Positions 3,383-29,034 of a stretch of 64,000 bases of DNA are shown in pieces; position 1 is the stretch's first letter; each line of letters begins with the position of its first letter. A program made the position numbers and the translations under genes. A model generated the notes under the pieces. That model made no database searches. It saw only the letters and a list, made by a program, of their open reading frames with translations, and was not told the DNA's origin. This DNA comes from a bacterium (lineage in GTDB: Bacteria > Patescibacteriota > Microgenomatia > UBA1400 > UBA12108), in assembly GCA_021788365.1 (NCBI GenBank), contig JAJYKS010000003.1, forward strand, positions 73,810 to 137,809, in the 5' to 3' direction.

Positions 3383-4336
3383 ATGAGTAATTACGATGTC
3401 GTGACCGTGGGGAGCGCAGTCCTCGACATTTTTATGAAGAGTGACAAATTCCGTCTTATGCACACCGATGCCGTGCCTGGTGGTGTTGCGATGTGTGAGG
3501 TATACGGAGGGAAGATGGAGGTACAGGAGGTGACCATTGCGTCTGGTGGCGGCGGGACGAATACAGCCGTGTCGTTTGCTCGGAAAGAGCTGAAAACCGC
3601 AACGATCGCAGAAATGGGGAATGACCCGGCGGCGCTCGTGGTGTACAAGGATTTGGAAGAGGCGGGCGTGGAGACACGTTATGTGGTACAAGTGGCTGGC
3701 GAGACCACGGCGGTGTCGGCGATCCTCATTGGTACCGATGGTGGGCGGTCTGTCATCACGTATCGCGGTGCCTCGGCAATGCTTACTAAGCACGACATTC
3801 CCTTTGACGATATTGAGGCGCGGTGGGTACATATTAGTAGCTTGGGGGGTAACCTCTCGCTTCTTAAACAGCTCCTCGACTGGGCGAAGCGAAAACATGT
3901 GCGCATATCCTTGAATCCCGGGATGCCAGAAATAGATCGACGAGAGAAGCTCATCCCGCTTCTCTCCGAAGTTGAGGTGCTTTTTCTCAATCGTGAGGAG
4001 GCGGCAGCACTTTTTGATGTAAATCTTGCTGACGAGATGGTGTGGAAAACACACCCCTTTACCGGTGGGGCAAAAGTGGTGGCCATAACCGATGGATCGC
4101 GTGGAGGAAAAGTTTGTATAGACGGGAAGCAAGTATTTTACGAAGCTGACCGCGTGAAGCACGTCGTAAATACGACGGGAGCAGGGGACGCGTTTGCCTC
4201 GGGGTACGTTGCAGCAATATTGTATGGTAAGGATTACGAGAAAGCGATACTGTGGGGGCGGGCGAATTCGACATCGGTGCTGTCGCAGGTTGGTGCAAAA
4301 AAGGGACTCTTAACTTTGGCGGAGATAAATCGCTAG
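3383..4336 (+). CDS. PfkB-family carbohydrate/ribokinase-like kinase
   Basis: 317 aa; C-terminal NTTGAGDAFASGYV is the PfkB signature; adjacent to pentose-phosphate genes. Confidence 0.75.
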   Translation: MSNYDVVTVGSAVLDIFMKSDKFRLMHTDAVPGGVAMCEVYGGKMEVQEVTIASGGGGTNTAVSFARKELKTATIAEMGNDPAALVVYKDLEEAGVETRYVVQVAGETTAVSAILIGTDGGRSVITYRGASAMLTKHDIPFDDIEARWVHISSLGGNLSLLKQLLDWAKRKHVRISLNPGMPEIDRREKLIPLLSEVEVLFLNREEAAALFDVNLADEMVWKTHPFTGGAKVVAITDGSRGGKVCIDGKQVFYEADRVKHVVNTTGAGDAFASGYVAAILYGKDYEKAILWGRANSTSVLSQVGAKKGLLTLAEINR

Positions 4337-16289: not shown

Positions 16290-16748
16290 ATGCAATGCCC
16301 TTACTGTCACAACGAAGATACTTCTGTACTCGAGAGTCGGATCACGGAAGATGGGGGCGCTATGCGCCGTCGCCGAGAGTGTGTGAAGTGTGGCAAACGT
16401 TTTACCACCTACGAACGCGCGGAGGGAGTAGATATCAAGGTGGTGAAGAAAACGGGGAAGATAGAGGACTTTGACCGGGAGAAGCTAAAGCGGGGCATCA
16501 TGAAGGCTACCTGGAAACGCCCTGTCTCGATGGAGCAGATTGAGGAGATGGTGGACGAAGTAGAGCGCATCTTACGTCGCAAGAGCTCGACCGAAGTTCG
16601 GAGTTGGGAGATAGGAAATCTTGTGATCAATCGCTTGAAAAAGATCGATCCACTAGCTTATTTACTTTTTGCCTCGGTGTATCGTGAGTTCGAGAACCTC
16701 TCGGATTTTGAGGAGGAAATAAAGAAACTTCAGGAGACAACTCCATGA
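16290..16748 (+). CDS. nrdR: transcriptional repressor NrdR (zinc ribbon + ATP-cone)
   Basis: MQCPYCHNEDTSVLESR...CVKCGKRFTTYE zinc ribbon followed by an ATP-cone. Confidence 0.85.
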   Translation: MQCPYCHNEDTSVLESRITEDGGAMRRRRECVKCGKRFTTYERAEGVDIKVVKKTGKIEDFDREKLKRGIMKATWKRPVSMEQIEEMVDEVERILRRKSSTEVRSWEIGNLVINRLKKIDPLAYLLFASVYREFENLSDFEEEIKKLQETTP

Positions 16749-18751
16749 AGGTAACAAAACTTAACGCCAATGCTGCGGCTATCATGGTAAACCGCTATTC
16801 GTTACGAGATGAGGCGGGGCACCCGGTGGAGTCTCCGACTGAGATATTTATGCGTGCAGCACGGGTAGTTGCCGAGGCGGAGAATAACTATCGGAGTAGC
16901 GGTACCACCGCTATGCAGGTGCAAGAGCAGTTTTTCGAGATTATGTATGAGATGCGGTTCGTGCCAAACGGCCGCACCATGGCCAACGCCGGGACGAAGT
17001 ACGGGCAGCTGGCTAACTGCTTTGTACTGCCAATCGACGATGATTTGGGAAAGGGGACAGATTCGATCTTTTCGGTTCTCCGTAAGGCTATTCTCACGCT
17101 ACAGACTGGCGGGGGAGTGGGGTTTTCGTTTGGACGTATCCGACCGAAGGATGCCTCAATTTCCACCTCGAAGGGCAAGGCGACCGGTGCGGTGTCATTT
17201 ATTAAAGTGTACGATACGGCGTTTTGGGTCATTGGCCAAGGTGGGGGGCGTAGGTCTGCAGCTATGGCAGTCCTCCCCGTGTGGCACCCGGATATTTTTG
17301 AGTTTGTAAAATGCAAGGCAACCGAAGGGCAGATAACCAACTTCAATATCTCTGTGGGCCTTACCGATGAATTTATGAAGGCGGTTGCGAAAGACGATGA
17401 TTTTGCTCTCCGCCACCCGGAGAACGGTGAGCTGTACCGTATGGTGCCTGCCCGCGAACTATTTGCCGAGATCGTGAAGTACGCGTACAAGAACGGTGAG
17501 CCGGGAGTCCTTTTCCTCGATGAGGCAAACCGTTTTAACCCCGTGCCGCACCTTTACAAGCTGGAGGCGACCAACCCGTGCGGCGAGCAATTTTTAGGAC
17601 CATATGAGAACTGCTGCCTAGGCAGTGTAAATCTGCGAGAGCACGCGAAGAAGATAAAAGGAGACGGGTATCAACTAGACTGGAACAAGCTTGCCGAGAC
17701 GGTGGAGCTCTCTGTGCGATTCCTCGATAATGTGGTGGACGCCAACAAGTACGTATCGGCGGTACCAGAGCTTGAAGAAGCGGCGCATAAAGTACGCCGT
17801 ATTGGTCTCTCCATCATGGGACTATCTGACCTCATGTATATTCTGGGAGTGCGATATGGCTCGCCGAAAGGACAGGAGCTAGCAAGTCAGATTATGGAGT
17901 TTATTCGCTACCACGCTATGAGCTCGTCTATCGAGCTTGCTCGCGAGCGTGGGCCATTTCCCGGCATTACCGGTAGTATCTATGACCCACAGAACGTGAC
18001 GTGGAAACCGCCCAAGGGGCTTGTTAAACATATGGCGGACTTCGGCAGGCCCGCACTTGAGTGGAAGCATATTCTGGAGGGTCTTAAGCAATATGGCATC
18101 CGCAACGGAGCACAGACGACGATCGCGCCGACGGGTTCTATTGCGACCATTTCTGGGCTTGAAGGCTATGGGTGTGAGCCGGTATTTGCCCTCTCCTATA
18201 CCCGTCACACGCGAGAAGGGGCGGAAAAAGAGGGTAAGGAGTGGCGAGAGATGTACTATACTTCGACGTTGTTTGAGCAGGCGCTGAAGAGCGAAGGAGT
18301 CGCTGCTGCCGAACGGAGGAAAATATTTGAGGCAGTACGTGAGGCCGGTGGGAGTTGCCAGAAAGTTGCTGGTATTCCAAAGCGCATTCTTGATACGTTT
18401 GTCATATCCTCTGACCTGTCAGTGGAAGAACACGTACGAATGCAGGCTGTTATGCAGAGCTGGCTCGATAACAGTATTAGCAAAACGATTAATTTCCCAC
18501 GGGACGCGACGCCGGATGATGTTGCTAAAGCATATCAACTGGGGTGGGAGCTGAAACTCCGTGGCATGACCGTGTATGTCGAGGGCTCGCGGGAGCAGGT
18601 GGTACTGGAGAAAAAATCGGGACCATTTGAGACGAAGGAAAATAAACAGGTAACCAGTGAGGAACTCTGCCCCGAGTGTGGCACGCCACTACGGATTGCC
18701 GAGGGGTGCTCGACGTGCCCGTCGTGTGCGTATTCGAGATGCGATAAATGA
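16745..18751 (+). CDS. nrdJ: class II (adenosylcobalamin-dependent) ribonucleotide reductase, copy 1
   Basis: 668 aa; NPCGEQ...CCLGSVNL active-site motif, [10 protein letters not shown]-terminal CPECG...CSTCPSC zinc ribbon; start overlaps the nrdR stop. Confidence 0.85.
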
Positions 18752-18815
18752 TCGGTAAGTCAGCGAATCGGCTAGTCAGCTAGTCGGTTCGTCAGTTAAT
18801 CGGAGAATCAGAGAT
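18752..18815. repeat. intergenic short-repeat cluster (AGTCAGCGAATCGGCTAG followed by TAGTCAGC tandem units)
   Basis: tcggtaagtcagcgaatcggctagtcagctagtcggttcgtcagttaatcgg. Same motif family as 1282-1413 and 23961-24010. Confidence 0.5.
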
Positions 18816-19223
18816 ATGACAAATAGTCAGTTAATAGACAAACTAGCGTGGTTGCACTTTGAGGATAAGCAGCTTTTGATGACGTTGAGCAAAGGGAAAG
18901 ATACTTACTATATCCCTGGCGGTAAACGGGAGGGGAGCGAGTCTGATGAAGAAGCGCTGGTAAGGGAAGTAAAGGAGGAGCTGACTGTGGATTTGAATAA
19001 AAGTACGATCAAACATTACGGTACGTTTGAGGCTCAGGCTCATGGGAAGCCAATTGGAACAATAGTGAGAATGACGTGTTATTTCGCCGATTACTCAGGG
19101 AAGTTGCAACCAAGTATGGAGATACAAAACATCGATTATTACACCTATGCACAGCGAGATATTGTTGGCCCAGTGGACCAAATAATTTTTGACGACTTAT
19201 ACGAAAAGGGTCTACTGAAATGA
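18816..19223 (+). CDS. NUDIX hydrolase
   Basis: 135 aa; Nudix box GGKREGSESDEEALVREVKEELTV. Confidence 0.7.
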   Translation: MTNSQLIDKLAWLHFEDKQLLMTLSKGKDTYYIPGGKREGSESDEEALVREVKEELTVDLNKSTIKHYGTFEAQAHGKPIGTIVRMTCYFADYSGKLQPSMEIQNIDYYTYAQRDIVGPVDQIIFDDLYEKGLLK

Positions 19224-19642
19224 AAACAAGAATTGGAGCAGTTGGGATCATACAAAATACGGACGGAGAAGTTCTTATTTGTAAGATGCCGGCAAAGCGG
19301 GGAATGTACCCAGAGCAGTGGGGCATACTCGGTGGTGGCATGGAAGATGGTGAAAAAATTGAAGATACCCTAAAACGCGAGGCAAAGGAAGAGTTGGGAA
19401 TTATCCTCAAAAATATACGACCATTTACCTTCCACGATGATACGCGCACAAAGTATTTTGCCGACGGACACACGGAAGAGGTCTATATGGTCTATTGTAT
19501 TTTTGATTGTGAAATAGCGGGTGGAAACGTAGTTCTTAACGACGAATGGGAAGAGTTTGTGTGGGTAAATCCAGAAAGACTCAGTGAGTATGATTTGAAT
19601 GATCCAACGATAAAGACGTTTACGTTGAAGGGTTGGCTATGA
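19220..19642 (+). CDS. NUDIX hydrolase
   Basis: 140 aa; Nudix box GGGMEDGEKIEDTLKREAKEELGI; start overlaps the previous stop. Confidence 0.75.
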   Translation: MKTRIGAVGIIQNTDGEVLICKMPAKRGMYPEQWGILGGGMEDGEKIEDTLKREAKEELGIILKNIRPFTFHDDTRTKYFADGHTEEVYMVYCIFDCEIAGGNVVLNDEWEEFVWVNPERLSEYDLNDPTIKTFTLKGWL

Positions 19643-21549
19643 CAAAGCCGAAAATTATTGAGCCGAAGCTAACGAAGAACGCAGCGGAGGTCGCAAAGAA
19701 ACGATACCTTCGGACAGATCTAAAAGGCAAGACTTTGGAGACGCCAGGGGAGATGTTGTGGCGGGTGGCGTACCACATGGCAACGGCTGAAGTGAAATGG
19801 GCTGGAAATGGAATTGTTATGGAAACGGCGACGAAATTTTACGAACGGATGGTGTCTATGAAGCTCGTGTGCGCCGGCAAGGCAATGTTCGAGGCCGGGA
19901 ACCCGGGCGGCACCGGACAACTTTCTTCCTGTTTCGTGCTCCCTATAGACGACGCTATTGGCAAGATATTTAAGACTTTGGGTGACGCGGCGGTTGTCCA
20001 CAAAAACAATGGCGGCACCGGTTTTAACTTTAGTAAAATCCGTCCGCACGGGGATAAGGTGCGGAATGTGCCGGGCGCTGCAAGCGGTCCTGTCGATTTT
20101 CTAAAAGCATATTCGGCCGCTCTCGCCCAGATATTGCAGGGAGCGAAACGGCAGGGGGCAAATATCGGCATCTTGAACGCCGATCACCCCGATATCGAAG
20201 AATTTATCGATATGAAAGACACGGACGGGACAATAAAGAACTTTAACGTCTCGGTCGGTGTCACCGACGCGTTTATGGAAGCCGTCGAGTCTGATGGGTG
20301 GTGGAACTTGGTAAACCCGCGAAACCACGAGGTGGTGAAGCGTATGAAAGCGCGAACGCTCTTCAATAAAATCGCCGAGCAGGCGTGGAAGACGGGGGAT
20401 CCTGGTCTCGCATTCCTCGACACCGTGGAAGCGGGTAATACCGTACCGGGATTTGGCGTAATTGACGCCTGCAATCCGTGTGGCGAGATATTCCTCTTCC
20501 CGTACGAGTCGTGCAATCTCACTACCATCGATTTAGCGCGGCATTTGAGGAAGGCAAAAAGGGGGTGGGAAATAGACTGGAGGGAACTCGAAGAGACAGT
20601 GAAACTGGGGGTGCGCTTCCTCGACGACATGATCGAGGTAAATAGCTATCCGGTTCCTGAGATAGAGGCGACCGTTAAGAATGGCAACCGGCGGATTGGG
20701 CTCGGGGTCATGGGATTTGCCCATATGCTCTATAAACTCGGCATTCCCTATAACTCGGCGGAGGCGGTAAAAACTGCCAAAGAGCTTTCGAAATTTATCT
20801 ACGAGCACGCGGCAGAGGCTTCGGCGGAGCTTGCGGAATCTCGTGGTAACTTCCCCAACTGGGACTTGTCTATATATCCTGCCAAGGGGCAGCCCATGCG
20901 CAACTGTGCAGTGACCATGGTTGCGCCGACCGGTACCATCTCTATCCTCGCTGATACTAGTAGCGGTATCGAGCCGGTGTTTTCCTTGGTCACCATCCGC
21001 CGCACGTTCTATGAGGACGATCGCTCCAATCACTCGACCAAAGAACTCACGATGGTGGACCCCGTTTTCCAAGATTACTTGGAAAACAAAGCAAAAATGA
21101 ACAAAAGTAAAATTGCACAAATTTTTAAACATGTAGCGGCGGGAGACTATAGCGACCTAACGCCTGAGGAGAAGAAACTGTTTGTCACGACCCACCAAAT
21201 AGCGCCGGAGTGGCACGTGAAGATACAGGCTGCGTGGCAAAAATATTTTGATAACAGTATCAGCAAAACTATCAACTTTTCCCACGAGGCGACGGTAGAG
21301 GATGTGAAGGTGGCGTATATGCAGGCATGGAAAGCAGGGTGCAAGGGAATCACGATATACCGAGATGGGAGTAAGGGAGATCAGGTGCTGGTAGCGCAAA
21401 CCTCAAACGTCAAAGCTCAAAACCAAAACCTAAAACCAGAAGACCAGGGATCAAGCGGGGACGGGATGTGTCCGGAGTGCGGGGGGAGACTGCACAAAGA
21501 GGATGGGTGTGCCAAGTGCGTGGATTGCGGTTATTCGGTGTGTGGATAG
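19633..21549 (+). CDS. nrdJ: class II ribonucleotide reductase, copy 2
   Basis: 638 aa; [26 protein letters not shown]-terminal CPECGGRLHKEDGCAKCVDCG zinc ribbon. Confidence 0.85.
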   Translation: MAMTKPKIIEPKLTKNAAEVAKKRYLRTDLKGKTLETPGEMLWRVAYHMATAEVKWAGNGIVMETATKFYERMVSMKLVCAGKAMFEAGNPGGTGQLSSCFVLPIDDAIGKIFKTLGDAAVVHKNNGGTGFNFSKIRPHGDKVRNVPGAASGPVDFLKAYSAALAQILQGAKRQGANIGILNADHPDIEEFIDMKDTDGTIKNFNVSVGVTDAFMEAVESDGWWNLVNPRNHEVVKRMKARTLFNKIAEQAWKTGDPGLAFLDTVEAGNTVPGFGVIDACNPCGEIFLFPYESCNLTTIDLARHLRKAKRGWEIDWRELEETVKLGVRFLDDMIEVNSYPVPEIEATVKNGNRRIGLGVMGFAHMLYKLGIPYNSAEAVKTAKELSKFIYEHAAEASAELAESRGNFPNWDLSIYPAKGQPMRNCAVTMVAPTGTISILADTSSGIEPVFSLVTIRRTFYEDDRSNHSTKELTMVDPVFQDYLENKAKMNKSKIAQIFKHVAAGDYSDLTPEEKKLFVTTHQIAPEWHVKIQAAWQKYFDNSISKTINFSHEATVEDVKVAYMQAWKAGCKGITIYRDGSKGDQVLVAQTSNVKAQNQNLKPEDQGSSGDGMCPECGGRLHKEDGCAKCVDCGYSVCG

Positions 21550-21556
21550 GAGGGCT

Positions 21557-21877
21557 ATGGATACAAAACAACTACTAAAAAAAACTCTTGAGATAGATAA
21601 GAAAATGAGTGGCTATGACAAGTTCCAGCGTTTGGCTGACGCCATGGAGGAGCTTGGAGAGACAGCAGCGGCTATGGTAGTTGTTGAGGGAGTTAAGAAG
21701 ACGAACGATCCCAAGAAACAATATACCGTTCGTGATGTTGCCGACGGACTCGCTGACACAATGTACACACTCATTCTTTTGGCAGATCAATATGGCGTTG
21801 ATTTATTTCAAGAGTACGGGGAGATGATTGAGCGATTACAGAAGCGAGTAGAGAGTGGGGAATTTAGACATGATTAA
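21557..21877 (+). CDS. MazG-like nucleotide pyrophosphohydrolase (small all-alpha NTP-PPase)
   Basis: Start trimmed to MDTKQLLKK (after the nrdJ2 stop); EELGETAAAM and ADGLADTMYTLILLADQYGVDL resemble MazG/dCTPase-type motifs. Confidence 0.55.
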   Translation: MDTKQLLKKTLEIDKKMSGYDKFQRLADAMEELGETAAAMVVVEGVKKTNDPKKQYTVRDVADGLADTMYTLILLADQYGVDLFQEYGEMIERLQKRVESGEFRHD

Positions 21878-24164
21878 AGAAATTACTAAGCGGGATGGGC
21901 GGGTGGTGCCGTTTTCCGTCGACAAGCTCGCTGGGGCGATATGGAAAGCGGGGAGGGAAACTGTCGAATTTGACGAGGCAGAGTCGAAGCGACTTTCGGG
22001 AATTGTCGTTACGCTCTTAGAAAAAACTCACACACCCGGTGTGAAGGGCGCCCACACACCGGGTGTTGAGGAGATCCAGGACTTTGTCGAGCAGGTTCTT
22101 ATGGCTGCCGGTCACTATCAGACGGCAAAGGCCTACATTTTGTATCGAGCCAAGCGAAGTGAAGAACGCAGAGCCGAACGCCTTATCGGTGTCACCGATG
22201 ACCTTGGCTTCACCCCCAATCAACTTAAGGTGCTGCAGAGTCGGTATTTATTAAAAGACGAAGACGGCAAAGTAGTAGAAACTCCCAGCGAGCTTTTCCG
22301 CAGAGTGGCAAAAAATTTGGCGATAGTGGAGAAGAAGGAGAAGCGTAAGCAGGTAGAAGCAGATTTTTACGAGGTGATGAGCAAACTTGAGTTTCTCCCG
22401 GCAGGTCGAACCCTCAACAACGCCGGTACCCCTCAGTCGCAGCTCGCCAACTGCTTTGTGCTACCGGTTGAAGACAGTATGGAGGGTATATTCGACTCGG
22501 TGAAATACATGGCGCTTGTACACCAGCGGGGCGGGGGAACGGGCTTTAACTTCTCGAAACTGCGGCCAAAGGGGGATGTCGTGACTAAATCATCCGGTGG
22601 ATTTGCGACGGGGCCGGTCTCGTTTATGAAAATTTTTGACATTGCGACCCGACAGGTCATGCAGGGCGGCAAGAAGCGCGGTGCCAATATGGGTATCCTC
22701 AACGTCGACCATCCCGACATCCTCGAGTTTATTACGGCAAAATCAGAGCGAGGAGAGATAGAAAACTTTAATATCTCGGTTGGTGTGACCGATGCTTTTA
22801 TGAAAGCGGTCGATACCGACTCTGAGTGGGCCCTCAAGAATCCGCGAACCGGTGAGGTGGTGCAGACTATGCGGGCTAGAAGCCTCATGGGACAGCTCAC
22901 CGCCATGGCGTGGCGCACGGGGGACCCCGGCCTCATATTCCTCGACCCCATCAACCGCAACAACCCGCTCCTTTCTAGGTACGGACGGATCGATGCCACG
23001 AACCCGTGTGGGGAGCAACCCCTTCACCCCTTTGATGCGTGCAACCTGGGAAGTGTAAACCTAGCAAAATTTGTCGGACCCTTCACACCCGGTGTGAAGG
23101 GTACCCACACACCGGGTGTGTTGTGGAACAGACTTGCCTTTGTGGTGCGGACGGCGGTGCGGATGCTCGACGACGTTATCGACGCATGTAAATATCCTTT
23201 ACCCCAAATTGCCGAGACCGTGCGGGCAAATCGCCGGATAGGGCTCGGTGTCATGGGGTGGGCAGATATGTTGTACCAGCTCCGTGTGCCATATGACTCT
23301 GACGCGGCGGTAAAGCTTGCCGGCAAAGTAGCCAAATTTATTCAGGATACCAGCTGGGATGAGAGTGCGAGATTGGCAAAGGAAAAAGGGGTATTCCCGC
23401 GGTGGAAAGAATCTAGTTTTGCACTTAGGGGACGGACCTCTAAGTATCGTAACGTGGCAATTACCACAATTGCACCAACCGGCAGCATCTCGATGCTCGC
23501 CGATGCATCATCGGGAATAGAACCGGTGTTTGCACTCGCCTATACCAAAAATGTGGTGGAAGACGCGGGCCTTACCTACATCAACAAGTATTTTGAGCGG
23601 GAGCTGCAAGCGGCTCTTTGGGCAGATGGTGACGCCGAACACAAGGTGCGGGATAGGATAGTTCGTGAAGTCTCGGCGGCTGGGTCGGTTGCCCACGTGT
23701 CCGGGGTACCCGCAGAGGTTGCCGGCGTCTATCGAACGGCGCATGACATATCACCCGAGTGGCATGTGAAGATGCAAGCTGCTTGGCAGAAATACACGGA
23801 TAACGCGGTCTCCAAGACCATTAACTTTCCCAACAGTGCGACTATAGATGACGTGGAGCGAGCATACATGCTAGCCTGGAAATCGGGGTGCAAGGGGATC
23901 ACCATTTACCGGGACGGGAGCAAAGACGTACAGATTTTGTCGGTGGGATCAACAAGCCGGCAAGTCAGCGAATCGGCTAGCCAGCAAGCCAGCAAGCCAG
24001 CAAGCCAGCAGATAATACAGAGTAAAATCAAAACAGAAACGTTGAAAGAGCGGGCAGCAAAGGGAAAACATATGACGGTGTGTCCGGAGTGTGGCGGAAA
24101 ACTTGTTGTCGAAGAGGGGTGTGCCAAGTGTTACGGATGTGGGTTTAGTGTATGCAACGGATAG
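21855..24164 (+). CDS. nrdJ: class II ribonucleotide reductase, copy 3, with an N-terminal ATP-cone
   Basis: 769 aa; N-terminal ATP-cone (MIKEITKRDGRVVPFSVDKL); NPCGEQPLHPFDACNLGSVNL, VSKTINFP, C-terminal CPECGGKLVVEEGCAKCYGCG; alternative start at 21870. Confidence 0.85.
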   Translation: MGNLDMIKEITKRDGRVVPFSVDKLAGAIWKAGRETVEFDEAESKRLSGIVVTLLEKTHTPGVKGAHTPGVEEIQDFVEQVLMAAGHYQTAKAYILYRAKRSEERRAERLIGVTDDLGFTPNQLKVLQSRYLLKDEDGKVVETPSELFRRVAKNLAIVEKKEKRKQVEADFYEVMSKLEFLPAGRTLNNAGTPQSQLANCFVLPVEDSMEGIFDSVKYMALVHQRGGGTGFNFSKLRPKGDVVTKSSGGFATGPVSFMKIFDIATRQVMQGGKKRGANMGILNVDHPDILEFITAKSERGEIENFNISVGVTDAFMKAVDTDSEWALKNPRTGEVVQTMRARSLMGQLTAMAWRTGDPGLIFLDPINRNNPLLSRYGRIDATNPCGEQPLHPFDACNLGSVNLAKFVGPFTPGVKGTHTPGVLWNRLAFVVRTAVRMLDDVIDACKYPLPQIAETVRANRRIGLGVMGWADMLYQLRVPYDSDAAVKLAGKVAKFIQDTSWDESARLAKEKGVFPRWKESSFALRGRTSKYRNVAITTIAPTGSISMLADASSGIEPVFALAYTKNVVEDAGLTYINKYFERELQAALWADGDAEHKVRDRIVREVSAAGSVAHVSGVPAEVAGVYRTAHDISPEWHVKMQAAWQKYTDNAVSKTINFPNSATIDDVERAYMLAWKSGCKGITIYRDGSKDVQILSVGSTSRQVSESASQQASKPASQQIIQSKIKTETLKERAAKGKHMTVCPECGGKLVVEEGCAKCYGCGFSVCNG
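22028..22066. repeat. about 39-bp double-palindrome element inserted in-frame in nrdJ3 (copy 1; encodes HTPGVKGAHTPGV)
   Basis: tcacacacccggtgtgaagggcgcccacacaccgggtgt; near-identical to 23078-23125. Confidence 0.6.
23078..23125. repeat. about 45-bp double-palindrome element inserted in-frame in nrdJ3 (copy 2; encodes FTPGVKGTHTPGV)
   Basis: cccttcacacccggtgtgaaggg is a perfect 11-bp-arm palindrome, followed by tacccacacaccgggtgtgttgtgg; the reverse strand encodes a TPGV-like peptide. Confidence 0.6.
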
Positions 24165-24787
24165 TGTTGGCCAGCGGGAGCCCGAGAAGGAAGGAAATAC
24201 TTGAGCTTCTAGGCTTGGAGTTCGAGGTGGCCGAGAGTCTATTTGATGAAGACCTTATCCAAACAGATGATCCGGTGGAACTCGTTGAGGAACTGGCCAT
24301 ACAGAAAGCACAAAAAGTAGCAGAGCGATATCCCGACGCTATCGTTATCGGTGGGGATACGACTGTCACGTTTGGCGTGGGATGGATGGGGAAAGCAAAT
24401 AGTGCGGAAGAAGCAATAAAAATTTTCGGTGAACTTTTGGGAAAGACACACAAAGTGATTACGGGAGTGGCGGTCGTAAACTCCTTAACTGGTGATACTT
24501 ATGTAGGTAGTGAGGAGGGAGTGGTGACGTTTCGCGAGGGATCGCCCCAAGAGCTCGCTAAGTATGCCGAAAACGAAAAAAACTGGCGGGGATTTGCCGG
24601 GGCGTATGCCTTGCAGGGTGGGGCGGCGCCGTTTGCCCTTTCCCAGTCCGGCAAGCTGTCGGCGATTATCGGGCTGCCAGTCGAGCTCACAACCGACCTT
24701 CTGGAGCAGGCGGGGGTGACGGTGGACGCAGATCCACGCGCGGTTGAAGATATGCTCCACGGAATGAAAGTGGGAATTGGGGACTAG
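24152..24787 (+). CDS. maf: Maf-like nucleoside triphosphate pyrophosphatase (septum formation protein Maf)
   Basis: LASGSPRRKEIL N-terminal Maf signature; 211 aa. Confidence 0.8.
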   Translation: MQRIVLASGSPRRKEILELLGLEFEVAESLFDEDLIQTDDPVELVEELAIQKAQKVAERYPDAIVIGGDTTVTFGVGWMGKANSAEEAIKIFGELLGKTHKVITGVAVVNSLTGDTYVGSEEGVVTFREGSPQELAKYAENEKNWRGFAGAYALQGGAAPFALSQSGKLSAIIGLPVELTTDLLEQAGVTVDADPRAVEDMLHGMKVGIGD

Positions 24788-24822
24788 ATAGAGGGGAGTT
24801 TCTGCGTGTATAATCCGGCCTC

Positions 24823-25623
24823 GTGGGATTGGAGCAGGGAGAGAGAAGGGTGTCTATTTCAACGGGGGCTTTGTGGCCAATTGCTGGAGAGTCGATTGGG
24901 GATAGGGTAGCTTCTGGATTTCAAATGGTTGATGGGTTGTTTGATAGCGGGGTTGTTGCTGGGTTGGAAGTGATGTTTAAGGACAACGGGCAGATCAAAG
25001 ATTTTTTGAGAGTACTGGACATGACAATGCTCTCGGAATTTCGACGTGTGGTTGATAGAGGAGCTGTATTGACGTTACATGCGCCTAAACCTCCTGAAGA
25101 CGTGATTTATGGTTCTGGTTCTAAGACGGAGATGGATATGTACGCTGAACTTCGTGAAGTATATGAAGTCATGAGTGGTATAAACATTTTTTACACGGTT
25201 TTTCATGCGGGTTGGTTTAATGAAGTGTTTATTCAAGAAAAGCTATTTCCTCATCAGACTGCTTACGAAAACAGTGACAAGCAACATACTAAGTGGAGGT
25301 CGGCGAAAGAAATGGGCAAACTTGTCCACAAAACTGGCGCATGGGGAGTTATGGATGCTGCGCATCTTAATAGTATTGGAGCTGGTCCACGGGAGGCTCA
25401 AGCAATGATAGATGCTCTTGGAGATGATCTTGCGGCGTTTCACATGAGTGGTATAAAACCGAGAGAAATTGAGCACATGCCAGTTACACGTATGAATGGT
25501 AGTAAGGCGAGAATGGTAAGTCTTTTAGAACCTATAAAGAAACATCCTGCGGCAGTCATCCTAGAATCACCAGTTGAGAGTGTGGTGGTGGCATTGGATG
25601 AATTGTCACTTGTACTCCAGTGA
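24823..25623 (+). CDS. hypothetical protein (possibly xylose-isomerase-like TIM barrel; weak)
   Basis: 266 aa; no firm motif recognised. Confidence 0.4.
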   Translation: MGLEQGERRVSISTGALWPIAGESIGDRVASGFQMVDGLFDSGVVAGLEVMFKDNGQIKDFLRVLDMTMLSEFRRVVDRGAVLTLHAPKPPEDVIYGSGSKTEMDMYAELREVYEVMSGINIFYTVFHAGWFNEVFIQEKLFPHQTAYENSDKQHTKWRSAKEMGKLVHKTGAWGVMDAAHLNSIGAGPREAQAMIDALGDDLAAFHMSGIKPREIEHMPVTRMNGSKARMVSLLEPIKKHPAAVILESPVESVVVALDELSLVLQ

Positions 25624-25635
25624 TAGGATATTCGT

Positions 25636-26232
25636 ATGAGTAAACTGGGACTGGTTTATGTTTTTACCGGGGAGGGGAAGGGGAAGACGAGCGCGGCCTT
25701 GGGTGTCGCGACGCGGGCGCTGCTCCTTGGTAAAAAAGTTTCGTGGGTAGCCTTTTACAAACAAGCCAGTTGGGGAATCGCGGAGGCAAAACTGGCGGAT
25801 ACGTTTCCTCATATGACGATGTATTTCGGTGGACATGGATTTATGATTCACGATTCACGATTTAAGAGGGGAAATGGGAAGGTAGCACCAGTTGGAGGCA
25901 AGGGAAATGTGGTGGTAGATACGGCGAGTGAAGAGGAGCATCTCCAGGCAGCGCAAGCGTGCTTGGTACAGGCAAGAGAACAGCTTGCGAAGAAACCATT
26001 TTTGCTTGTCATGGACGAAGTACTAAACGCGGTGTCGGAGGGACTTATACAAGAGAACGAGGTTTTGGAGCTTTTGGAAGGGCGAGGAGAGACGCATGTC
26101 GTCTTGACCGGTAGATCCGACCCGCATCTTACAAGGATGATCCTTGTAAAGTGTGATCTAGTTACGGAGTGTAAGAAAGTTAAGCATCCTTATGACGAGG
26201 GGAACCTGGCGGTTGCGGGATTGGATTTTTAA
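25636..26232 (+). CDS. cob(I)yrinic acid a,c-diamide / cob(I)alamin adenosyltransferase (CobA/CobO/BtuR family)
   Basis: VYVFTGEGKGKTSAALG P-loop is characteristic of BtuR/CobO; about 198 aa. Confidence 0.75.
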   Translation: MSKLGLVYVFTGEGKGKTSAALGVATRALLLGKKVSWVAFYKQASWGIAEAKLADTFPHMTMYFGGHGFMIHDSRFKRGNGKVAPVGGKGNVVVDTASEEEHLQAAQACLVQAREQLAKKPFLLVMDEVLNAVSEGLIQENEVLELLEGRGETHVVLTGRSDPHLTRMILVKCDLVTECKKVKHPYDEGNLAVAGLDF

Positions 26233-26287
26233 CTTGTTTTTTGCCGTATAATGAAATGAATAGCGTCCTGTATGGGGGTTTGTTTGT

Positions 26288-26704
26288 ATGGTAGATACGA
26301 AGAAAGAAAAAGAATCCATTCGGCAAGCTCAGGACCGTGGGCCAATAGGTGTGGTGGGGCGGGAACGTGCACCGGAGGAATTCCCCACGGTAGAGTCGCC
26401 GCGAAAAGCAGAGGAGCCACTGGAGGTTGAGAGTTGGATTGAGAAGATAGAGAAGCGCTTTGCGCGGGTACCGCAAAACAATAACATCCAGGATGACACT
26501 GTCGTTGTGACCCAGCCACAGTCCAATCAGCCGCCGGTGACTTTGCCGGTTACGCAGCAGCAAATCAACGATAATCACAATGGTAAGCCGGAGTTTTCGC
26601 TAACATGGCTTGTCACCTGGGCGATACGGCAGATAAAGATGCTCACTCTCGTGGGGAGACATATTCGGCTTCAGGATCTACCGGAAGCTGACAAGAAGAA
26701 GTAA
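26288..26704 (+). CDS. hypothetical protein (Pro/Gln-rich, possibly a partner of the downstream ATPase)
   Basis: 138 aa; low-complexity middle region; translationally close to the downstream gene. Confidence 0.35.
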   Translation: MVDTKKEKESIRQAQDRGPIGVVGRERAPEEFPTVESPRKAEEPLEVESWIEKIEKRFARVPQNNNIQDDTVVVTQPQSNQPPVTLPVTQQQINDNHNGKPEFSLTWLVTWAIRQIKMLTLVGRHIRLQDLPEADKKK

Positions 26705-26706
26705 CT

Positions 26707-29034
26707 ATGCAAGGTATGGAGGCATTTTCACAATTTTTAACCAACATGGCATATGGCTTGGTTGTTTTTGCCATAATCCTTGCTGGCCTCTCTGCTCTTG
26801 CCTACGCATTTCTCCTGTGGATCCGCAATCACAAGCGAGAGGAATACTCGCTTTCATTTGTAACGCTTGAAGTAGCCTTGCCACACGAGAACGAGATAAA
26901 GATAGATGCCGCAGAGCAATTGTTTGCCTCTTTGTACTCTATAAAGAATGAGGAGTGGTATTCATTCCTTCAGTCAGAGCATGCCATATCGTTCGAGCTC
27001 GTCGGAAAGAAAGAGGATATTCGCTTCTACGTGTCGGTGCCGCACGAACTCATGGAGCTTGTAGAGAAGCAGATCCACGGTGCGTATCCGGGTGCGGAAA
27101 TAAAAACCGTTGATGAGCCAACGATATTTTCCGATAATGGTAAGGTGGCATACGAGTCTTTTGTCAAAAAGAACGCCGGCTACTATCCTATTCAGTCGTT
27201 CCGTGATCTACCTACTGACCCGCTTTCGTCCATAACCTCATTTCTCGCTAAGATGCGGGAGGGGGAGGGTGCCATGCTCCAGATAGTGGTGTCGCCGGCC
27301 TCGCACGGCTGGGCGAGTTCGGGACACGGCTATATCAGCCGGTCGAAGAAAGACGAGGCAAATCCAGAGCATGCGACCTACTCCGTAGATCCAAAATCGC
27401 TGGAAGCGGTAGAGCGCTCAACCGGTAAGCCAGGCTTTTCTGTATCTATTCGTATGGTTGTCTCTGCGCCCACGAAGCGTGAAGCACATATGCTTTTGTC
27501 ACAATTCTCCGGAACATTTGCGCAGTTCTCCGGGCCATACAACAAGTTTGTGAAACAACATGTATGGCTGAAGCGTCTGTTTATGATCGATTTTATTTAT
27601 CGTTATCAGGCTATGTTTCGTGGCAAGTCAGTTCTTAATTCTGAGGAGCTTGCGACCATCTTTCACTTTCCCAATAAGCAAGTGGAGACGCCGCACATTC
27701 ATTGGCTGACAGCCAAATCAGCTCCGGCACCGGCACAGATACCCCAATCGGGACTCTTTCTTGGCAAGAGCGTATATCGCGGGCTATCTCGCAACATTTA
27801 TATATCCGATAAAGACCGGGCTCGCCATATGTATATCATCGGGAAAACGGGTGTCGGCAAATCGGAGTTTATGATGGACATGATCTTGCAAGATATACGA
27901 GCGGGTAAGGGGGTATGTTTTATCGACCCGCATGACACTGTTGAAAAAATACTTGAGTATATTCCGCCAGAGCGTGCGGAAGATGTCATCTATTTTGATC
28001 CATCCGACACCGACCGGCCCATGGGTCTTAACATGCTAGAAGCGGCTACGGAAGAGGAAAAACAGTTTGTGGCTAGCTCCATCATCAATCTCATGTACAA
28101 GTTGTACGACCCACACAAGACAGGTATCATCGGTCCGCGATTCGAGCACGCCATTCGCAACGCCATGATGACTGTTATGAGTGAGCCAGGGGCGACGTTT
28201 ATCGAAATCGTTCGCGTTCTTACCGACCAGAAATTTCTCCAAGAGCTTTTGCCGAAGGTGCAAGATCCCATCGTGCGGCGCTATTGGACAGACCAGATTG
28301 CGCAAACGTCGGATTTCCACAAGTCGGAAGTCCTAGACTATATTGTCTCTAAGTTTGGTCGGTTTATTACCGATAAAATGATGCGAAATATCATTGGACA
28401 ATCCCAATCTGCGTTTAATTTCCGCAAGGTTATGGACGAGGGGAAAATACTCCTTATTAACCTGGCAAAAGGAAGGATTGGGGAGGAGAACTCAGCGTTC
28501 TTGGGCCTCATACTTGTCCCTAAGCTTTTGGTTGCGGCTATGAGCCGGCAGGATGTGCCGGAGGCGCAAAGACGAGATTTTAACCTCTACGTTGACGAAT
28601 TTCAGAACTTTGCGACACCCGACTTCGCCACCATTCTTTCGGAGGCACGTAAATATCACTTGAATCTGACTGTTGCGAACCAGTTTATCGGACAGATCGA
28701 CGAAGAGGTAAAGAACGCCGTATTTGGTAACGTGGGTACGCTCATCTCTTTCCGTGTGGGTGTGCAGGACGCAAACTTTTTGCAACATGAGTTTACGCCA
28801 ACGTTTTCAGAATCCGATCTTACCAATGTGGAGCGATATCATACGTTCGTGAAGACCATTGTAGACAACGAACCGATGCCGCCTTTTTCGATGGACCTCA
28901 CACGCGATATCGATGCTTTCCGCAAAGCGGCTAACCCGAAACTTGCTGAGATGGTCAAGAAGCTATCGCGCCTCAAGTACGGAAAAGATAAGAATATTCT
29001 CGAAGTGGAGATCGCGAAGCGCGCGAGGTTGTAG
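26707..29034 (+). CDS. VirB4/TraC-like (type IV secretion / conjugation-type) membrane-anchored ATPase
   Basis: 775 aa; N-terminal TM; Walker A IIGKTGVGKSE around residue 375, Walker B LYVDEFQNF; FtsK/HerA-fold layout typical of VirB4-family ATPases. Confidence 0.65.
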   Translation: MQGMEAFSQFLTNMAYGLVVFAIILAGLSALAYAFLLWIRNHKREEYSLSFVTLEVALPHENEIKIDAAEQLFASLYSIKNEEWYSFLQSEHAISFELVGKKEDIRFYVSVPHELMELVEKQIHGAYPGAEIKTVDEPTIFSDNGKVAYESFVKKNAGYYPIQSFRDLPTDPLSSITSFLAKMREGEGAMLQIVVSPASHGWASSGHGYISRSKKDEANPEHATYSVDPKSLEAVERSTGKPGFSVSIRMVVSAPTKREAHMLLSQFSGTFAQFSGPYNKFVKQHVWLKRLFMIDFIYRYQAMFRGKSVLNSEELATIFHFPNKQVETPHIHWLTAKSAPAPAQIPQSGLFLGKSVYRGLSRNIYISDKDRARHMYIIGKTGVGKSEFMMDMILQDIRAGKGVCFIDPHDTVEKILEYIPPERAEDVIYFDPSDTDRPMGLNMLEAATEEEKQFVASSIINLMYKLYDPHKTGIIGPRFEHAIRNAMMTVMSEPGATFIEIVRVLTDQKFLQELLPKVQDPIVRRYWTDQIAQTSDFHKSEVLDYIVSKFGRFITDKMMRNIIGQSQSAFNFRKVMDEGKILLINLAKGRIGEENSAFLGLILVPKLLVAAMSRQDVPEAQRRDFNLYVDEFQNFATPDFATILSEARKYHLNLTVANQFIGQIDEEVKNAVFGNVGTLISFRVGVQDANFLQHEFTPTFSESDLTNVERYHTFVKTIVDNEPMPPFSMDLTRDIDAFRKAANPKLAEMVKKLSRLKYGKDKNILEVEIAKRARL

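Follow-up and report, generated by a model that had tools for sequence, protein, structure and literature searches.

The stretch of DNA analysed here—the window—comprises 64,000 nucleotides (nt) of contig JAJYKS010000003.1 (GenBank assembly GCA_021788365.1) from a bacterium of the Microgenomatia. It contains three genes of class II ribonucleotide reductases (RNRs), the third of which, nrdJ3, holds two copies of a short palindromic repeat within its coding sequence; this repeat, its distribution and its likely nature are the subject of this work. The product of nrdJ3 combines an ATP-cone, an RNR all-alpha domain and an RNR barrel according to Pfam. Among solved structures, its best match is T. 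maritima B12-dependent RNR (E=1e-116), and its database relatives are named adenosylcobalamin-dependent RNRs of Woesebacteria and Microgenomates. Two RNR paralogs without an ATP-cone lie upstream of it, at 16745–18751 and 19633–21549. The initial annotation described two near-identical double-palindrome segments in nrdJ3 and read them as a miniature palindromic repeat that has entered a coding sequence and left its frame intact. The description is borne out by a repeat search, which returns a single family of direct repeats in the gene (22031–22066 against 23084–23119, 36 nt at 94% identity) with the sequence as described. The reading is supported as well, with both copies in frame in the open reading frame (ORF) 21855–24164 and translated as xTPGVKGxHTPGV.

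The repeat unit has a length of 37 nt. Its left part is a 13-nt odd palindrome, CACACC-C-GGTGTG, followed by a spacer of 11 nt—AAGGGCGCCCA or AAGGGTACCCA—with a palindromic centre of its own, and its right part, CACACC-G-GGTGTG, is the reverse complement of the left arm, with copy 1 ending in T. The CCCTT/AAGGG extension of the left arm of copy 2 (Table 1) is found again in other copies. Folded as single-stranded DNA, both copies fold well: the minimum-energy structure of each is one hairpin of 12–13 bp at about −18 kcal/mol, with folding z-scores of −6.6 and −2.3 for copies 1 and 2, respectively. The two adjacent hairpins that were originally proposed persist as an alternative fold of the very bases that form this single hairpin, but they are not the minimum-energy state. 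A more fitting description of the unit is an inverted repeat of 13 bp that encloses a spacer of 11 nt and has arms that are also self-palindromic. Within the 64 kb, the 18-mer CACACCCGGTGTGAAGGG and the 16-mer CCCACACACCGGGTGT are confined to the two copies; shuffled sequences give expectations of 0.03 and 0.32 matches, respectively, and the observed counts were reached in none of 100 shuffles. A relaxed scan of the window for NNNNCCNGGNNNN palindromes gave no further or degenerate copies above background.

Table 1. Positions of the repeat copies, their host gene, unfilled sites in the paralogs, and other palindromes and insertions in relatives. Positions without a locus prefix refer to the window.
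Feature	Position	Strand	Description
Repeat copy 1, 37-nt core	22031..22067	+	CACACCCGGTGTG-AAGGGCGCCCA-CACACCGGGTGTT, final base G>T; in frame, H59-V71 = HTPGVKGAHTPGV; ATP-cone loop (site 1)
Repeat copy 2, 37-nt core	23084..23120	+	CACACCCGGTGTG-AAGGGTACCCA-CACACCGGGTGTG; F410-V422 = FTPGVKGTHTPGV; loop after the CNLGSVNLAKF barrel strand (site 2)
Extended left hairpin of copy 2	23078..23102	+	25-nt perfect odd palindrome ACCCTTCACACC-C-GGTGTGAAGGGT
Host gene nrdJ3	21855..24164	+	class II adenosylcobalamin-type RNR; N-terminal ATP-cone, C-terminal Cys-rich tail; Pfam PF03477, PF00317, PF02867
Empty target site, paralog-1 RNR	17650..17667	+	...GATAAA|AGGAGAC..., junction 17658|17659; L167 exactly +39 nt: CATACCAGGTATGAAGGGAGCCCACATACCTGGTATGTC
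Empty homologous site, paralog-2 RNR	20545..20570	+	L167 +57 nt including a CATACC-type copy; L001 net +13 aa copy
CCTGCCTGCGCAGGCAGG copies	L003:1730-1747, 2633-2650, 4137-4154; L100:11052-11069; L098:11940-11957; L038:1200-1217		
Palindromes in CobA-like genes of relatives	L001:14050-14072; L004:3958-3980; L098, L102, L145, L096		
Site 2 insertions in relatives	L088:1714; L097:3133, 5352; L098:5019, 9819; L106:2253; L158:6830, 12596		

Both copies are accommodated in loops, as an alignment check suggested with the initial annotation confirmed. Site 2 is an insertion of 10 residues relative to the T. maritima NrdJ chain, directly after the CNLGS..AKF strand, and site 1 lengthens the ATP-cone, which spans 95 residues for 87 profile positions. 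An AlphaFold2 model of moderate quality, with a mean pLDDT of 65, shows the two segments as coil between helices, and its pLDDT values are below 50 at residues 411–418. Judged by sequence comparison, both segments are insertions in variable loops. The exact TPGV string is found in 14 of 120 orthologs (72–99% identity), and a few others bear IPGM-type variants; most of the 120 have no such motif at site 2. Occupancy is patchy—site 1 alone, site 2 alone, or both—and differs even among orthologs that are 90–98% identical. RNR genes hold two copies in the window and up to four in relatives. The claim that the element is absent from the two paralogs is correct for the window, but does not extend to related genomes, whose paralogs do carry it: in L001, all three RNR paralogs bear a copy at the homologous loop, each with a net gain of 13 amino acids.

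The element is not peculiar to this gene family. One genome per species, for 185,579 species, was scanned with the pattern CAYWCCSGGWRTG-N11-CAYWCCSGGWRTG, which left the relation of one arm to the other free. The scan gave at least 80 loci where, by our estimate from information content, about one match is expected by chance; with the spacer fixed at 11 nt, copies with longer spacers are under-counted, and strict-copy figures per assembly are lower bounds. One locus, L021:3578-3614 of the cyanobacterium FACHB-471, is a 24-nt tandem repeat with an identical centre base in both units instead of an inverted-repeat element and was left out of the statistics. Among the matches listed—to which the host, frame and arm counts given here refer—the hosts are mainly Patescibacteria, that is, the candidate phyla radiation (CPR: Beckwith-, Woese-, Curtiss-, Gottesman-, Pacei-, Nomura- and Berkelbacteria, Microgenomates), plus Omnitrophota. 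Some of the metagenome-assembled genomes (MAGs) among them carry the automatic labels 'Pseudomonadales' or 'Gammaproteobacteria'. At least one of them, CAYGFS01, probably represents a Microgenomates relative, since its ATP-cone RNR bears the element at site 1 and an intein architecture matching that of orthologs about 80% identical to the window protein. Single assemblies contain at least 5–8 strict copies, and the complete 1.05-Mb Beckwithbacteria genome CP011210.1 at least 8. A scan of IMG/VR viral contigs found no copy, and hence nothing points to a phage vector.

Open frames of at least 600 nt harbour 54 of the 84 matches listed (64%), and of these frames 35 read xTPGV...TPGV, 16 HTRC/HSRS and 3 the third frame; the coding copies show a strong preference for the TPGV frame and for K-G orientation. 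Many genes other than nrdJ3, and many genomes, contain the palindrome pair. Within the listed matches, leucyl-tRNA synthetase hosts the element in three genomes and LepA in two, at one shared inter-domain site; further hosts are IF-2, a ComM-like Mg-chelatase, Sua5-TsaE, TsaD, an ATP-dependent DNA ligase, DnaE, the CCA-adding enzyme, Fic, an O-antigen ligase (Wzy) and an intein-containing RNR. The genes of an RNR paralog, a Fic protein, IF-2 and others, from different assemblies, share one identical 37-mer, CACACCCGGTGTGAAGGGCGCCCACACACCGGGTGTG, and this identity across unrelated genes excludes a convergent origin. Extragenic copies among the matches listed stem mostly from Omnitrophota, Paceibacteria and Nomurabacteria, the Omnitrophota sites being extragenic for the most part; the stems of extragenic copies are extended by a mean of 3.1 bp (up to 16 bp) versus 1.0 bp, and they lie just 3′ of genes or adjoin Shine-Dalgarno-like flanks, a placement reminiscent of repetitive extragenic palindromes (REPs). 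The extragenic copies of the Omnitrophota assembly JACPXM01 (L009, L024, L036, L074, L083) have CCTCC...GGAGG-like inverted flanks. The 3′ flank of L074 resembles a Shine-Dalgarno sequence with a start codon, and this hairpin could mask a ribosome-binding site.

These data bear on two functional explanations. The first holds that the peptide xTPGVKGxHTPGV is under selection as a protein motif, such as a turn or a binding loop, having originated or been co-opted to serve RNR function. The preference for the TPGV frame and the K-G orientation in coding copies agrees with it, as does the presence of two copies, and up to four in relatives, in RNR genes. We consider it very unlikely, as the same DNA is also read in the HTRC/HSRS frames and is present extragenically, the host proteins are functionally unrelated, the segment is modelled with low confidence, and it is absent from most orthologs, including ones that are 96–98% identical; the synonymous covariation described below, which preserves the symmetry of the DNA, likewise speaks against selection on the peptide. 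In the second, the gene contains the segments as cis-regulatory sites for nrd expression, for example NrdR boxes or an mRNA structure. Related loci have an nrdR-type gene directly upstream of their three RNR genes, and the window has a matching 152-aa ORF at 16290–16748. The repeat arms start with ACAC and end with GTGT, as does the NrdR box consensus, and the Omnitrophota copies adjoin the Shine-Dalgarno-like flanks mentioned above. However, NrdR operators lie upstream of nrd operons, whereas the copies sit inside coding sequences, mostly of non-nrd genes; the arm sequence varies freely while its symmetry is kept; the sites are missing in most orthologs; and Rfam gave no match in the window segment 21500–24300 at E≤1 and none in 9 loci at gathering score. 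An nrd-regulatory role is hence highly improbable.

Among the matches listed, the centres of the arms are complementary in 83 of 84, arm 2 is the exact reverse complement of arm 1 in 79 (against 1/32 expected by chance), and both arms are self-palindromic in 76. Covariation was analysed solely on copies found via protein homology, which are free of bias from the search pattern. Their arms vary as CACACC/GGTGTG, CATACC/GGTATG (with centre A, then T), CACTCC/GGAGTG, CATTCC/GGAATG, AACTCC/GGAGTT and CGATCC.../...GGATCG. Across 12 such copies the long hairpin is 99.3% paired, slid controls falling to 26–61%, and 9 of the 13 pairs are changed on both sides but none of the 13 on one side only. Several of these two-sided changes are synonymous, such as ACA (Thr) paired with GGT (Gly) as against ACT (Thr) paired with GGA (Gly). 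The two-hairpin reading pairs almost as well (97.7%). G-U intermediates do not occur among the 12 copies, and this absence of wobble states favours symmetry of the DNA over an RNA structure. Arm symmetry is not obligatory: P0001, a protein 99% identical to that of the window, reads TPGA at V414, which necessarily alters an arm base; P0002 has a decayed IPGL/KPGM copy at site 1; and L087 contains a solo palindrome that equals the L003 copy minus one 24-nt period.

Evidence of movement comes from an alignment of 12 kb of the window with two close relatives, L169 (GCA_021843025.1, 93% nt identity) and L167 (85%). At the junction 17658|17659 in paralog 1, the site is empty in the window and L169 and filled by a precise 39 nt in L167, where no duplication of the target is visible. 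The flanks of 32 copies show a weak bias—A/T at −1, T/A at +1 and C-rich at −4/−3—and these preferences lengthen the inverted repeat to a unit of 39 nt, possibly 45 nt, both multiples of three. At site 1, filled alleles have changed flanking residues in common (EKS to EKT/A, VEK to VEE/Q), and residues 62–72 hold 11 of the 24 differences that separate P0016 from the 98%-identical empty P0028. In the pair P0007/P0058 (86% nt identity), the loop itself has diverged and offers no clean boundary. The patchy distribution is probably due in part to short-patch recombination between alleles. That the repeat might be an assembly or sequencing artefact of palindromic reads is suggested by the fact that the data are all metagenome-assembled. 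Yet the same filled alleles recur in independent ENA and JGI assemblies (L001, L002), one genome whose record lists it as complete contains copies, long ORFs always keep their reading frame, and compensatory variants are lineage-specific, which together leave an artefact with practically no probability.

The phenomenon is wider than this one repeat. A second dispersed element, the perfect 18-nt palindrome CCTGCCTGCGCAGGCAGG (read as LPAQAG), was counted 18 times over 12 loci: at three sites in NrdJ3, at one in Maf, in other ORFs, and nested in the spacer of the TPGV element (L003, L133, L038). Relative to the window, which has no copy, it is a clean addition of 18 nt in nrdJ3 at DDL|GF (near 22203–22212) and at LWAD|GD. 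A 21-nt perfect palindrome, TTACAAGGATGATCCTTGTAA, lies at 26129–26149 in an ORF for a CobA/CobO/BtuR-like corrinoid adenosyltransferase (25636–26232). At the same position of CobA-like orthologs there are six other perfect palindromes of 15–23 nt with different sequences, e.g., CCTGCGAGGACAGTCCTCGCAGG and CCTTCCGGGAGACTCCCGGAAGG; other orthologs bear no palindrome and are 3 amino acids shorter there. The RNR loop after CNLGS/CCLGS/CNLTS, i.e., site 2, is hypervariable in all three paralogs of related genomes. It gathers microsatellites such as (AAATTCTC)n and (AGTCAAA)n, other hairpins (GGTTGATCCCT...AGGGATCAACC, TCGGCCAAAGGCCGA and CCCGGCGCCGGG, some of them in other genes too), and arrays of CACGTCAG then AACGTGGA.

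This setting is where an origin without transposition has to be weighed. Palindromes would then be made and perfected locally by template switching during replication (quasi-palindrome correction) and be copied between sites or lineages only by ectopic or homologous short-patch gene conversion. The perfectly Watson-Crick arms without one-sided changes are consistent with such a process, as are the altered flanks shared by filled site 1 alleles, the clustering of P0016–P0028 differences, the seven sequence variants of unrelated perfect palindromes at one fixed site of the CobA-like gene, and the microsatellites and hairpins gathered at RNR site 2. Nevertheless, unrelated genes that share no flanking homology contain identical 37-mers, the insertion in paralog 1 is a precise 39 nt, and the same core is found in extragenic hairpins of other phyla; local template switching alone cannot make one sequence at many sites. 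We therefore regard this explanation as unlikely, while giving it more than passing weight.

Among known systems, Rickettsia palindromic elements (RPEs) document that palindromes can be inserted in frame (PMC10969869). In the passages of PMC10969869 and PMC3733652 that relate Ogata et al. (2000, 2002), the first-reported RPEs are about 150 bp long and restricted to their genus. The likeness, as far as these passages describe it, lies in palindromic repeats that are in frame in unrelated, mostly housekeeping genes of reduced genomes and are translated as extra loops, with no known transposase and sometimes with two copies per gene. The present element differs by its unit of 37–39 nt, its self-palindromic arms and its occurrence in several CPR lineages and Omnitrophota, a distinction drawn by length, architecture and host. 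REPs, in the sections of Di Nocera et al. (2013, PMC3733652) that describe them, are palindromes of 20–40 bp that often form inverted dimers (bacterial interspersed mosaic elements, BIMEs, or REP doublets forming hairpins, REPINs) folding into a larger hairpin; extragenic copies lie 3′ of genes, and intragenic singles or dimers are noted as 'many within replication and repair genes', in some cases with two in one ORF. CPR bacteria do not figure among the REP hosts in these sections of PMC3733652. With 13-bp inverted arms, an 11-nt spacer and a hairpin of about −18 kcal/mol, the element likewise forms a palindrome of the dimer type. In contrast to REPs and REPINs, a profile of the flanks of 32 copies reveals neither a GTAG nor a CGTC tag, the share of listed matches within genes is as high as stated above where REPs are mostly extragenic, and at least 5–8 strict copies per assembly compare with tens to thousands of REPs. 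The element works like an RPE or REP but is a member of neither, because it has no GTAG/CGTC tag, is not mainly extragenic or high-copy, is not about 150 bp long and is not rickettsial.

Mitochondrial elements share with it perfect inverted repeats inside translated genes, an apparent upkeep of symmetry at the DNA level and a double-hairpin architecture. The double-hairpin elements (DHEs) of Allomyces and the GC clusters of yeast are such double-hairpin or GC-cluster elements of mitochondrial genes. In Nematomorpha mitochondrial genes, the arms of coding palindromes encode conserved protein regions (PMC6649704). These systems differ in being organellar, the Nematomorpha arms lie in conserved regions and not in inserted loops, and there is no sign of relatedness. 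Transposable elements of the miniature inverted-repeat type (MITEs) resemble the element in being short, non-autonomous and dispersed, with inverted-repeat termini and sometimes an in-frame position; the unit is, however, below their usual size range and shows no target-site duplication, and no parent insertion sequence was seen. DNA-uptake sequences, lox-like recombinase scars, restriction-site effects, CRISPR-like repeats and NrdR boxes were considered too and do not fit with copies that occur only as pairs, low copy number, variable arms and many host genes. The comparison with the inteins and introns that RNR genes attract holds as an analogy only, as no homing enzyme was seen; insertion by an intein or homing endonuclease does not fit a segment of 13 amino acids without a domain that lies in variable loops rather than at conserved catalytic sites. 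As a separate observation, true LAGLIDADG inteins are present in some nrdJ3 orthologs (L047:1044-4751, P0017, P0063), besides the element at site 1. Literature searches with the DNA strings and peptides of the element returned no relevant paper in the library searched—one match led to an unrelated one—and keyword searches gave RPE, REP, MITE and mitochondrial precedents only.

Taken together, we consider it probable that the element is a non-autonomous mobile palindrome of the REP/RPE kind that is tolerated in frame, and likewise probable that it represents low-copy, dispersed palindromic DNA with a core of 37 nt and an inserted unit of about 39 nt. Its dispersal, the identity of copies across unrelated genes, the symmetry at the DNA level, the precise 39-nt indel and the location in loops are observed. 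The element may spread as DNA via a hairpin- or palindrome-dependent cut-and-join or copy process, for which the leading candidate mobilisers would be an HUH enzyme akin to REP-associated tyrosine transposases (RAYT-like) or a different enzyme that centres on the invariant core CCNGG; the strict Watson-Crick arms and the nested second palindrome point to such a mechanism based on DNA hairpins. Alleles would then pass between lineages by short-patch recombination. Persistence within ORFs might be explained by the scarcity of stops (five of six frames are stop-free in the AAGGG-spacer class), by the length being a multiple of three, and by the preferred translation into a flexible, Pro-Gly-rich surface loop, xTPGVKGxHTPGV. 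The nrdJ3 copies would have no dedicated function and constitute selfish or neutral DNA tolerated in two permissive loops.

Several points weigh against this reading. There is no target-site duplication at the clean 39-nt insertion in L167 or in the flanks of 32 copies, and these flanks show no strict target motif either. Filled alleles at RNR sites 1 and 2 replace part of the ancestral loop and are not a plain addition of 39 nt, which agrees with patch recombination no less than with transposition. In about 1 Mb around RNR orthologs, copies lie in RNR genes only, an over-representation for which we have no explanation, and the strong TPGV-frame bias shows that filtering at the peptide level matters. 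Copy numbers of at least about 5–8 strict copies per assembly, with 8 in the complete 1.05-Mb genome, are far below those of classical REPs. Finally, no transposase, RAYT or other mobilising gene was identified, with the ORFs beside extragenic copies annotated in part.

The cluster around the host gene (16290–29034) is conserved. It comprises the 152-aa ORF at the nrdR position, the three tandem class II RNR paralogs, interleaved ORFs at NUDIX positions, a weakly PRA-PH/MazG-like ORF (21503–21877), Maf, the CobA-like gene and a VirD4/TraG-like ATPase; its small ORFs were scanned in part. Synteny is kept in L001, L087, L167 and L169. A presence/absence difference of 404 nt at 18816–19223 corresponds to an extra ORF in the window and L169—annotated there as a NUDIX hydrolase—that is absent in L167. 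The C-terminal linker of nrdJ3 at 23950–24000 is a low-complexity, Ser/Gln/Ala-rich segment, SESASQQASKPASQQ, before the Cys-rich tail, with short indels among close relatives. In addition, the 13-nt palindrome TCGGTGTCACCGA is found at 20255–20267 in paralog 2 and at 22186–22198 in nrdJ3. These positions are non-homologous, and both occurrences extend to 15 nt; a rough estimate for such a pair arising by chance is about 0.01.

Palindromic selfish DNA that is translated within essential genes has so far been known mainly from Rickettsia, with a few reports of intragenic REPs. The present finding would extend such translated selfish palindromes, in a much smaller unit, across the CPR, a large group with tiny genomes in which every gene counts. 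The element accounts for some of the loop insertions in CPR proteins that had lacked an explanation, and annotators and structure predictors should be cautioned that such 13-aa segments are not functional motifs. Filled and empty sites provide countable markers for recombination and mobile DNA in uncultivated bacteria. Tentatively, and with more doubt than confidence, CPR and Omnitrophota might host an unrecognised class of minimal palindromic mobile DNAs—the 37–39-nt TPGV unit, CCTGCCTGCGCAGGCAGG and others—that would insert precisely and without target duplication into the coding sequence of essential genes, nest in each other, keep their symmetry at the DNA level and rely on a hairpin- or CCNGG-specific enzyme. 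If true, these would be the smallest known protein-coding selfish elements, and they would give minimal genomes a steady supply of new surface loops.

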